Shown here: positions 31,798 to 39,335 of the stretch, in pieces
How the letters are laid out: every line of letters begins with the position of its first letter
Position numbering within the stretch: position 1 is the stretch's first letter
Assembly: GCA_964625885.1 (NCBI GenBank)
Contig: CAZVBM010000002.1
Span: 7,537 to 71,536, forward strand
Direction: 5' to 3'
Origin: an uncultured Candidatus Saccharibacteria bacterium
Lineage (GTDB): Bacteria; Patescibacteriota; Saccharimonadia; Saccharimonadales; Saccharimonadaceae
DNA length: 64,000 bases
The notes under the pieces: generated by a model
What the model was told of the DNA's origin: nothing
The model's database searches: none
What the model saw: only the letters and a program-made list of their open reading frames with translations
Made by a program: the position numbers and the translations under genes

Positions 31798-32262
31798 ATG
31801 AACATCCACCAAGTTGAAAAATTCTTCAAAGATAAGAACGACGCGCCTTGCCCATTAACCAAGCGACTTATTAAGGCTGGTTATCAACAGACCAGTGGCG
31901 GATACATAGCCCTGGCAAAGAAGCGCGGTTTGATCGTAGATTACACAAAAGCCAAGCCTACACAATATTGGCACCTTATAGAGGGGTATTGCCCTTCCGT
32001 AGACAAGAATAAGACTTTTAGCAGAAGCATCGTTTGTGGCGAACTAATATTCTGGATGGCCGAGGTGTCGAAAGCCGTATCAAACGACGACTTAGAAGAA
32101 TTGCTTGAGCGAATAATTGCAAGTAGGGATACTGGCACCACTCCGCCAAAACATGATCGCATCAAATGGAATAAAGAGATTCAGAACCTTTGTTTTTGCG
32201 CAATAGAAGCGAAGGTAAAGAACACCGAGAATGTCGCTAACGCGACTTCCGTTCGCTCATGA
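31798..32262 (+). CDS. Hypothetical protein (154 aa from MNIHQ). Possibly leaderless.
   Basis: ORF 31711..32262 in the track. TATAAT at 31786-31791 lies 6 nt before the in-frame ATG at 31798 and there is no SD, so I prefer that start. No recognised family. Confidence 0.5.
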   Translation: MNIHQVEKFFKDKNDAPCPLTKRLIKAGYQQTSGGYIALAKKRGLIVDYTKAKPTQYWHLIEGYCPSVDKNKTFSRSIVCGELIFWMAEVSKAVSNDDLEELLERIIASRDTGTTPPKHDRIKWNKEIQNLCFCAIEAKVKNTENVANATSVRS

Positions 32263-32265
32263 AAA

Positions 32266-32410
32266 ATCCCACCGGGAAGGTTCGTTCGCTTTGCTTCCGA
32301 ACGCTCCGCCCGAACGCCAGATTAGTTTTGCTAACGCAAAACATCTGGGTTCGGTCCTGATGCGAAGCATCAAAAAAGAATACCCCAGCCGTTGGCTGAG
32401 GTATTCTTTT
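32266..32410 (-). repeat. tRNA-Glu-matched trailer unit: terminator-like hairpin, T-arm-derived palindrome and a 13-nt copy of the tRNA 3' part
   Basis: atcccaccgggaa at 32266-32278 repeats 32416-32428 inside the tRNA. ccgaacgccagat (32310-32322) and atctgggttcgg (32343-32354) form a hairpin made of tRNA-Glu T-arm sequence around gttttgctaacgcaaaac. Confidence 0.7.
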
Positions 32411-32485
32411 TGGTGATCCCACCGGGAATCGAACCCAGATTGCCAGGATGAAAACCTGGTGTCCTAACCGTTAGACGATGGGACC
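32411..32485 (-). tRNA. tRNA-Glu (anticodon UUC), CCA encoded
   Basis: Hand-folded cloverleaf: GGTCCCA/TGGGATC acceptor, anticodon loop TTTTCAT, T-arm CTGGG-TTCGATT-CCCGG. Confidence 0.9.
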
Positions 32486-32719
32486 AAAATGGTTAAAACG
32501 TGGCTAATTATAACCGATTAATTCTCAAAACACAAGCGTGGCTAAAACACAAGAATTCTTTCCGTAATCAGCCCATCATTCCGCAAGGTATCTGAGTTGG
32601 GCTTACAACCAACCAGCCGATTTTAGTAGTTGTTACACTGTAATACCAAGATCAGCTTCGTATAACAGTGGTCAAATTGCTTAGCTTATTGTTATTTTGC
32701 ACTTTTTGTTGTAAAACTA

Positions 32720-38957: not shown

Positions 38958-39335
38958 TCCTCCGTCGCTATCCGTTGGATAGCTATGGAGGATTTTTTGT
39001 ACATCTAGGTAGGGCGAGAACCTGACTCGCCAGTTGGCGGGAGGTTCGGCGTAGCGCAGCGAAGCGAAAAAGTGTTTACATTTTTTCGCAAGCAAGCGAA
39101 GGAGCGAGCAAAGCGAGCGATGTCCTGCCGGGTGCACCATTAAAAAATAGCTACATTGTGGCCATTTTTTAATGGTCTATACCCAGACAGATTTGATTCT
39201 GCGGCGCGGCAGATTTAGCTGACGCAAGCCGCAGGTTCGGCGGAGGCGAAATGAGAAAAGAAAGCACTGTAGGTATTTTCTTTTCGAATGAGCCAGAGGA
39301 GGCAAAGCCGATGTCCTGCCACGCACCCATCACCC
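38958..39335 (+). repeat. Two tandem tRNA-Arg-matched units, each ending in a copy of the tRNA 3' part
   Basis: gtcctgccgggtgcacca (38940-38957) is repeated exactly at 39122-39139 and degenerately at 39313-39329. T-stem 5' copies lie at 39038-39049 (diverged) and 39228-39240 (12/13). Confidence 0.85.

Follow-up and report, generated by a model that had tools for sequence, protein, structure and literature searches.

The window analysed here is a stretch of 64,000 nucleotides from the genome of an uncultured Candidatus Saccharibacteria bacterium (G000; 0.74 Mb in 23 contigs, 45 tRNA genes), and it holds a tRNA-Glu gene followed on its own strand by a trailer in which pieces of the tRNA recur. 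Read away from the tRNA, and including the gene on the opposite strand that the trailer runs into, the locus is organised as follows:

32411..32485, minus strand: tRNA-Glu(UUC) with an encoded CCA, the source of all copied segments (ARAGORN; Rfam tRNA, 60.5 bits).
32372..32410, minus strand: intrinsic-terminator-like hairpin of tRNA-Glu, a 15-bp stem with a T run (from sequence and fold), identical in the relative G002.
32359..32371, minus strand: small hairpin gatgc-ttc-gcatc (from sequence).
32343..32371, minus strand: the small hairpin plus segment D, an antisense T-arm copy (from sequence comparison).
32343-32354, minus strand: ccgaacccagat, containing an 11-nt exact reverse complement of tRNA-Glu nt 47-57.
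32325..32342, minus strand: segment E, the palindrome GTTTTGCGTTAGCAAAAC, that is GTTTTGC-GTTA-GCAAAAC (from sequence).
32310..32324, minus strand: segment F, taatctggCgttcgg, a sense copy of tRNA-Glu nt 45-57 with one extra C.
32279..32309, minus strand: segment G1, a 31-nt purine-rich insert within the T-loop.
32266..32278, minus strand: segment H1, ttcccggtgggat, exactly tRNA-Glu nt 59-71, the 13-nt direct repeat.
32233..32265, minus strand: what is left of a second module, namely ttttcat followed by gagcgaacggaagtcgcgttagcgac, the 3' half of a cassette; its orthologue is the cassette 3' half of G002.
32223..32232, minus strand: segment H2, attctcggtg, tRNA-Glu nt 58-67 with one mismatch.
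31798..32262, plus strand: conserved Saccharibacteria hypothetical protein (481 homologues, about 143 aa).

The locus comprises two fused modules, a compact one (D, E, F, the 31-nt G1 and H1) and the 3' half of a second one (the 3' half of its insert G, and H2). In the compact module, segment F reads aatctggCgttcg with its one inserted C and ends at the breakpoint that is fixed throughout the family described below. The insert, which the earlier note had put at about 30 nt with the flavour of other tRNA loci, measures 31 nt and retains both the 5' start of the family cassette (gcggagcg) and its 3' motif (agcgaacgaac), without the central hairpin; in the predicted fold it has a cgttcg/cgaacg hairpin of its own. 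The repeat itself is also as first described: 32266-32278 is identical to 32416-32428 over exactly 13 nt, with different flanking bases on both sides, and three bases separate it from the TGA (32260-32262) that ends the neighbouring reading frame, and the other sequence features listed in the earlier note were all found where it had placed them. The 137 nt between the two copies of the repeat contain no gene or ORF. Two elements were absent from that description. The 3' arm of the small hairpin is part of an antisense copy that extends, imperfectly, over the whole T-arm, a continuation of D that is predicted to be able to pair with H1, and a second, truncated copy lies at 32223-32258, in which attctcggtg is preceded by a cassette 3' half. 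The ttttcat of this second remnant corresponds to the descending arm of a cassette central hairpin, H2 stops where ORF-derived sequence starts, and both H1 and H2 end short of the CCA. Family profiles match the locus weakly (nhmmer E=0.027-0.045; CM 12.3 bits, E=0.01, 32236-32297), and the match, which runs across the fusion, takes in G1 and H1 as well as the 3' half of the second module.

On its own, a 13-mer with up to two mismatches is uninformative, since 0.88 matches are expected by chance in the window, and the repeat could be read as a random match beside which a purine-rich flavour was noticed. For a genome-wide background, the last 22 nt of each tRNA were compared with 300 nt of every non-cognate trailer (approximately 1,400 pairs), and the longest exact match was at most 10 nt, apart from three 22-nt matches, which we take to be neighbouring tRNA genes; the upstream controls gave at most 8 nt, except for one case with a sister tRNA upstream. 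The exact 13-nt match between tRNA-Glu and its own trailer therefore exceeds the genome-wide background, and cognate matches of 13-22 nt occur at several loci. Because four independent family features also coincide at the expected spacing, and because orthologous modules exist in G002 and in G035, a member of another genus, we regard chance as already refuted.

The Glu unit proved to be a real member of a family found at other tRNA loci, as had been suspected. In canonical form, each module consists of an antisense copy of the neighbouring tRNA's own T-arm (D), a small palindrome capped by GNA or GNNA, typically TTTTGC-GNA or GNNA-GCAAAA (E), a sense copy of roughly nt 45-57 (F), a two-hairpin, purine-rich cassette, 60-90 nt long, that sits at the centre of the T-loop (G), and a sense copy from nt 58/59 that reaches the CCA in half of the modules (H). 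The two cassette hairpins are a central one, flanked by A/T, and a small one of the GGC-GAA-GCC type. Under a uniform rule, by which a module is called when at least two of five criteria hold, 17 of the 40 assessable tRNAs of G000 pass (five more lie at contig ends), two of them only through the module of a neighbouring tRNA, which leaves about 15-17; the tRNA-Glu module passes four of the five criteria, with F ending at nt 57 and H starting at nt 59. The palindrome E lies 59-96 nt downstream of at least 14 tRNAs, and 71 nt past the end of tRNA-Glu. The breakpoint was counted over 41 modules with a located cognate tRNA, from genomes of other families as well as from G000 and G002. In 30 of the 41, the last copied base of F is nt 57; in 34 of 40, H begins at nt 58/59, and in 21 of 40 it runs to the CCA.

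The copies derive from the adjacent tRNA gene. One tRNA-Gly has an unusual T-loop, TTTGA, and its F is GGGTTTG, with a D to match; at the Glu locus of G000 both D and F share a T variant of the tRNA-Glu T-stem, which G002 does not have. Among 151 genomes sampled from the order, a model built on the cassette sequence alone found the cassette in 18, which belong to many families, with 14, 14 and 1 copies within the genus of G000, and cassettes at different tRNAs are approximately 90% alike by eye. Such a model was built because no consensus emerged when RNAalifold was run on 22 cassettes aligned with MAFFT, as the cassette subtypes misalign. The same plan with unrelated inserts is present at the tRNA-Glu of other genera (L014 and L018). 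By inspection, the cassettes showed stops in the frames tried and no consistent start codon. Our literature search found no description of such repeats in Saccharibacteria, and scans of metagenomes and genomes for near-identical tRNA-Glu trailers returned only G002.

Some further observations concern the family as a whole. In the central hairpin (e.g., window 39235-39310, and L049-L068), most copies from many families carry a tandem G.T/C.A non-Watson-Crick step, AAAGCACC...GGTATTTT, while the tip of the stem covaries, and the step looks like a conserved recognition feature. When G.T and A.C mismatches in stems were compared as a strand test, terminators accounted for most of the apparent excess, and the G.T/C.A tandem of the cassette hairpin is a conserved one. 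Contigs of G000 end at tRNA genes or inside modules at C5:2-76, C8:2-75, C21:1-90, C23:2605-2692, C13:121 and C23:151, and the tRNAs at these ends carry modules in G002; the repeats thus probably break the assembly, and the module count for G000 is a lower bound. Outside the window, in the trailer of C8:26780-26855 and some 76 nt past tRNA-Phe, stands ggctccgccctcgattcaagtccgagaggagccacca, an uninterrupted minihelix copy of the tRNA-Phe acceptor stem and T-arm with CCA and no cassette, which is decayed in G002.

The earlier note had called the repeat att-like, and its position invites that reading: an integrative element would have crossed over in the T-loop of tRNA-Glu and later been almost wholly deleted. 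Integrases that cross over in the T-loop leave att repeats that start there. The Glu locus resembles att repeats that target tRNAs in that a direct repeat of the tRNA 3' part begins inside the T-loop, and in that its surroundings vary and are prone to islands. Among relatives, the interval from tRNA-Glu to the pyruvate kinase gene (pyk) indeed differs. In G002 it receives an island of approximately 10 kb (L025 4766-13951 plus L026 1-985, spanning a contig break, with a possible primase-like ORF at the contig end) that encodes a large serine recombinase, a type I restriction-modification (R-M) system (hsdRSM), RhuM and a NOV_C-domain protein. In G000, H2 is abutted by the 31798..32262 gene, and in the one homologue looked up type I R-M genes lie just downstream. 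Against an att-type scar stand the 137 gene-free nucleotides between the repeats, with the ORF outside them, which does not support a role of the repeat as an island boundary, and the island junctions of G002, which split the loop of the terminator of the neighbouring 30795-like gene, 5 nt outside the H of the tRNA-Glu module. Moreover, unlike tRNA-targeting att repeats, the Glu locus has no island or integrase between its repeats, and its five-part plan recurs at about 15 other tRNAs, each time with that tRNA's own sequence; a conserved cassette interrupts the loop of the T-arm copy, an antisense copy stands before it, and no att site is known to us with these two traits. The only integrase of G000 is one Xer-like gene. 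We consider an integration scar very unlikely, and favour a module built from the adjacent tRNA.

The ORF at 31798..32262, which had been called an orphan, has too many homologues for that name. It is absent from G001, G002 and G035; in the window it is 11 residues longer, the tail ENVANATSVRS and the stop being encoded by H2 and the remnant of the cassette 3' half. The 30795-31619 gene (plus strand), which encodes a hypothetical membrane protein beside pyk, has two tandem paralogues in G002 (L025 2996-4765; 63% and 52% identity), and its product was not found in G001 or in the other genera searched. The variable insertions in the tRNA-Glu/pyk interval make it a hot spot for accessory DNA, and the Glu module is neither boundary nor cargo of those insertions. 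It had been proposed that relatives in which tRNA-Glu is directly followed by the 30795 gene would reveal an empty site. In G002, however, the site holds the module, which directly adjoins the terminator of the 30795-like gene; contrary to expectation, what G002 is missing is the ORF segment of approximately 550 bp. In more distant relatives, pyk directly follows tRNA-Glu.

G002, a Candidatus Nanosyncoccaceae (Saccharibacteria) MAG, is the closest relative compared and a congener. At its orthologous site, the terminator and the small hairpin are identical to those of the window, and a single full module that lacks E comes next (cgaatcc-tt-gggttcg / gtggagtg...gaaaaagtgtttacattttttc...agcgaacggaagttgcgctagcgac / attcccggtgggatcac). 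Window 32223-32265 (ttttcat gagcgaacggaagtcgcgttagcgac attctcggtg) aligns to the 3' half of that module, which identifies the stretch as what remains of a second module, with an H (H2) that breaks off after nt 67. In G035 the small hairpin is gacgc/gcgtc, changed on both arms, and the Glu module has a full 76-nt cassette. The palindrome E at Glu is found in G035 and not in G002, and the compact module shares with G035 the E-F sequence gcaaaactaatctgg-gttcgg and the cassette/H junction aacc|ttccc. The simplest reading of these alignments is that a common ancestor had two modules, of which G002 would have lost most of the first, while in G000 the second would have been deprived of its 5' half and the first of its centre. 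The earlier note had left open whether the unit is minimal or decayed; with full-length cassettes at the orthologous site of G002 and in G035, decay is the better of the two.

Copy number also changed between these congeners at other tRNAs: G000 and G002 differ by one extra module at tRNA-Ser(GCT), by 1 versus 2 periods at tRNA-Leu(CAG), and by presence versus absence at tRNA-Met. In arrays, the period runs from T-loop to T-loop, as at tRNA-Asn and tRNA-Lys(UUU) in G002 and at tRNA-Met in G000. A divergent tRNA-Met pair (G000 C4:24184-24938; G002 L031) has its flanks swapped, as if the pair had been inverted, and one of the two tRNA-Met genes has a module only in G000, with a 53-nt duplication of the tRNA end and terminator.

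The genome G000 encodes neither a resolvase-domain protein nor a reverse transcriptase or Y1 transposase, and its single Xer-like tyrosine recombinase is encoded on another contig. The Y1 domain (PF01797) is absent from G000 and G002, a tblastn search of G000 with a RAYT-like protein of G091 gave nothing better than E=2, and neither PF00078 (reverse transcriptase) nor PF08704 (TrmI) was found in G000 and relatives. The family is explained by no known mobilising enzyme. RAYT-like genes were found only in G091, G093 and G083. The three RAYT-like Y1 genes of G091 are unrelated to tRNA modules, and one of them (L069 2300-3075) lies between ruvC and ruvA with the REP-like palindrome TTCCAAGACCAGGTCTTGGAA on both sides.

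The modules could still be small non-autonomous mobile DNA of a MITE- or PATE-like kind that targets the centre of the T-loop, the Glu copy being an internally deleted element; G and, separately, E would insert in the loops of T-arm hairpins and survive only in the dispensable copies behind tRNAs. The likeness of cassettes at different tRNAs, the breakpoint fixed at nt 57|58-59, the patchy spread over many families with such uneven copy numbers within the genus, and the contig breaks at module-bearing tRNAs all suit such an element. So do the inversion of both cassette and E at a tRNA-Met of contig C8, in G000 and G002, and the two cassette hairpins, approximately 20 nt from the 5' end and near the 3' end, a placement that resembles the ends of IS200/IS605. 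With REP/RAYT and IS200/IS605-derived palindrome-associated elements, the modules further share that they are short, non-coding, hairpin-rich dispersed repeats with imperfect conserved stems. However, REPs do not copy a flanking tRNA, G000 and G002 lack Y1 and reverse transcriptase genes (G000 also lacks resolvase-domain recombinases, and one Xer-like gene is its only tyrosine recombinase), and the RAYT-like gene whose flanks were read, one G091 copy, is accompanied by a different repeat. Terminal inverted repeats and target-site duplications are not evident, and a simple insertion leaves the copying of D, F and H from the adjacent tRNA unexplained. Mobile DNA seems to us an unlikely origin.

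More specific mechanisms were rejected. Mobilisation by Y1/RAYT proteins is contradicted by the restriction of these genes to three genomes and by the other REP that flanks the one examined. Insertion by a serine recombinase at a CG dinucleotide of the T-loop would call for a resolvase-domain protein, which G000 does not have, and a flip by such an enzyme is at odds with the inverted tRNA-Met cassette, which brings flanking bases along, unlike a clean flip. Retroviral primer-binding sites copy the 3' 18 nt of a tRNA up to m1A58, the same 18 nt as in an H of nt 59-76; an origin by reverse transcription has nevertheless become a distant prospect, given the absence of PF00078 and PF08704 and given that H can pass the CCA into a copy of the terminator (tRNA-Met, C4). 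For an inverted triplication by template switching (ODIRA-like), the expected palindromic junctions are missing.

A parallel is found in the tRNA-Tyr operon of E. coli. The rtT RNA has been reported to arise from a single repeat unit of tyrT (Bosl and Kersten 1991, as cited in PMC3318445), and its mode of action has been called unknown (bioRxiv 10.1101/2024.07.17.603846). We read the tyrT-tyrV locus of E. coli K-12 directly (rttR; Rfam RF00391; L076, 1286300-1287800). Each unit, with a period of 178 bp, consists of an antisense GGGGAAGGATGAGAAGCTTCG, acc, aaggttcga, a 66-nt purine-rich insert with a hairpin, and AATCCTTCCCCCACCACCA. The first of these is an antisense copy of tRNA-Tyr nt 49-69 with GA for the central TC; after the short loop, AAGGTTCGA is a sense copy ending at nt 57/58; and AATCCTTCCCCCACCACCA is tRNA-Tyr nt 58-76, CCA included. 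The RtT units and the Saccharibacteria modules thus share their position directly after a tRNA on the same strand, the possibility of tandem repeats, an antisense T-arm, a sense copy up to approximately nt 57/58, a purine-rich insert with a hairpin (of about 66 nt in RtT) and a 3' copy from nt 58. The GA opposite tRNA nt 57-58 in the antisense copy is present in each E. coli RtT unit and in 10 of 22 Saccharibacteria modules, but not in the Glu copy. The Glu locus follows the RtT layout, on the same strand after its tRNA, with copies of the tRNA 3' part and with D, F and G1 at 32279-32354, although in comparison with RtT it is truncated (an H of 13 nt, the central hairpin lost) and stands behind a terminator. 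The systems differ in that RtT has a loop of 3-4 nt where the modules have the E palindrome, and in that the E. coli region examined has four RtT units, all by two tRNA-Tyr genes, whereas in G000 approximately 15 tRNAs are involved, each with cognate-matched copies, and the cassette is shared by many families of the order.

The likeness extends to the predicted structures. The Rfam consensus structure of RtT and the folds of the modules are both predicted to be closed by pairing between the antisense copy and the 3' copy, and D:H closure appears in the predicted folds of E. coli RtT, the G000 tRNA-Tyr module and the compact Glu module. The last is a three-way fold made of D:H1, D:F capped by E, and the cgttcg/cgaacg hairpin. 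E. coli RtT had a z-score of -2.7 and the compact Glu module one of -4.5, whereas the G000 tRNA-Tyr module, at -0.3, was no better than shuffles. Departures from the tRNA sequence that are compensated are few (4 positions in D:H and 2 in D:F). The RF00391 model, which scores 133-138 bits on E. coli, found nothing in 32150-32500 with the cutoff at E=10, and five other module loci, searched with the cutoff at E=5, gave no match either; no score is expected at other tRNAs, as the model contains sequence specific to tRNA-Tyr. The cassette model in turn did not match the E. coli RtT repeats. Since the sequence models fail in both directions, the link with RtT is one of architecture and not of demonstrable sequence homology, and the Glu unit is not a member of RF00391.

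Taken together, we consider it probable (approximately 0.6) that 32223-32371 on the minus strand is a decayed composite member of a family of RtT-like tRNA-trailer modules and carries no integration scar. Unequal recombination between the tRNA-derived repeats, or slippage, may lengthen and shorten arrays of such modules, in which the period runs from T-loop to T-loop, and compact copies may arise by deletion, such as one that would have fused H1 to an arm of the cassette hairpin. For the arrival of modules at new tRNAs and the likeness of their cassettes, gene conversion and a trans-acting activity are candidates. In intact modules, read-through from the tRNA promoter would yield a closed, multi-arm RNA with a tRNA-like tail, in which, according to the folds, D:H would form the closure, D:F the first arm and the cassette hairpins the others; this RNA would be comparable to the RtT RNA of E. 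coli, which is processed and stable. At the Glu locus, the strong terminator between the tRNA and the module counts against read-through. Placed behind that terminator and deprived of the central hairpin, the Glu copy is most probably a relic that is no longer active, although its predicted fold makes it possible that the compact module is a minimal but coherent form. For the family at large, the high turnover within the genus (14, 14 and 1 copies) and the patchy spread over 18 of 151 genomes are as compatible with selfish DNA as with a functional RNA, if not more so.

RtT has for decades been an oddity of the tyrT operon of E. coli. The finding of the same five-part plan behind approximately 15 tRNAs of a 0.74-Mb CPR genome turns a single-locus curiosity into a comparative data set, which fixes the breakpoint at T-loop nt 57/58, shows the adjacent gene to be the source of the copies, and does so with no need for a reverse transcriptase, a resolvase-domain recombinase or a Y1 transposase in the resident genome. 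Within it, the Glu copy illustrates how a module decays, by fusion and internal deletion; the pieces that it has in common with G002 and G035 indicate that modules persisted at this locus, and the extended C-terminus of the neighbouring protein shows that module sequence can be recruited as the tail of another gene. Partial tRNA repeats such as these should not be annotated as att sites. More speculatively, RtT-like modules may form a widespread tRNA-linked class, from Enterobacteria to the CPR, that rebuilds itself from the T-arm of its neighbour and gives structured RNA products, a generalisation that we hold to be quite improbable at present. If it were true, modules would be copied in a templated manner from the neighbour's T-arm, with a break fixed at nt 57/58 and no enzyme encoded by the element, and their structured, CCA-tailed trailer RNAs would act on tRNA processing or on starvation signalling. 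The Glu locus would then be a snapshot of the cycle of birth and decay of these modules.
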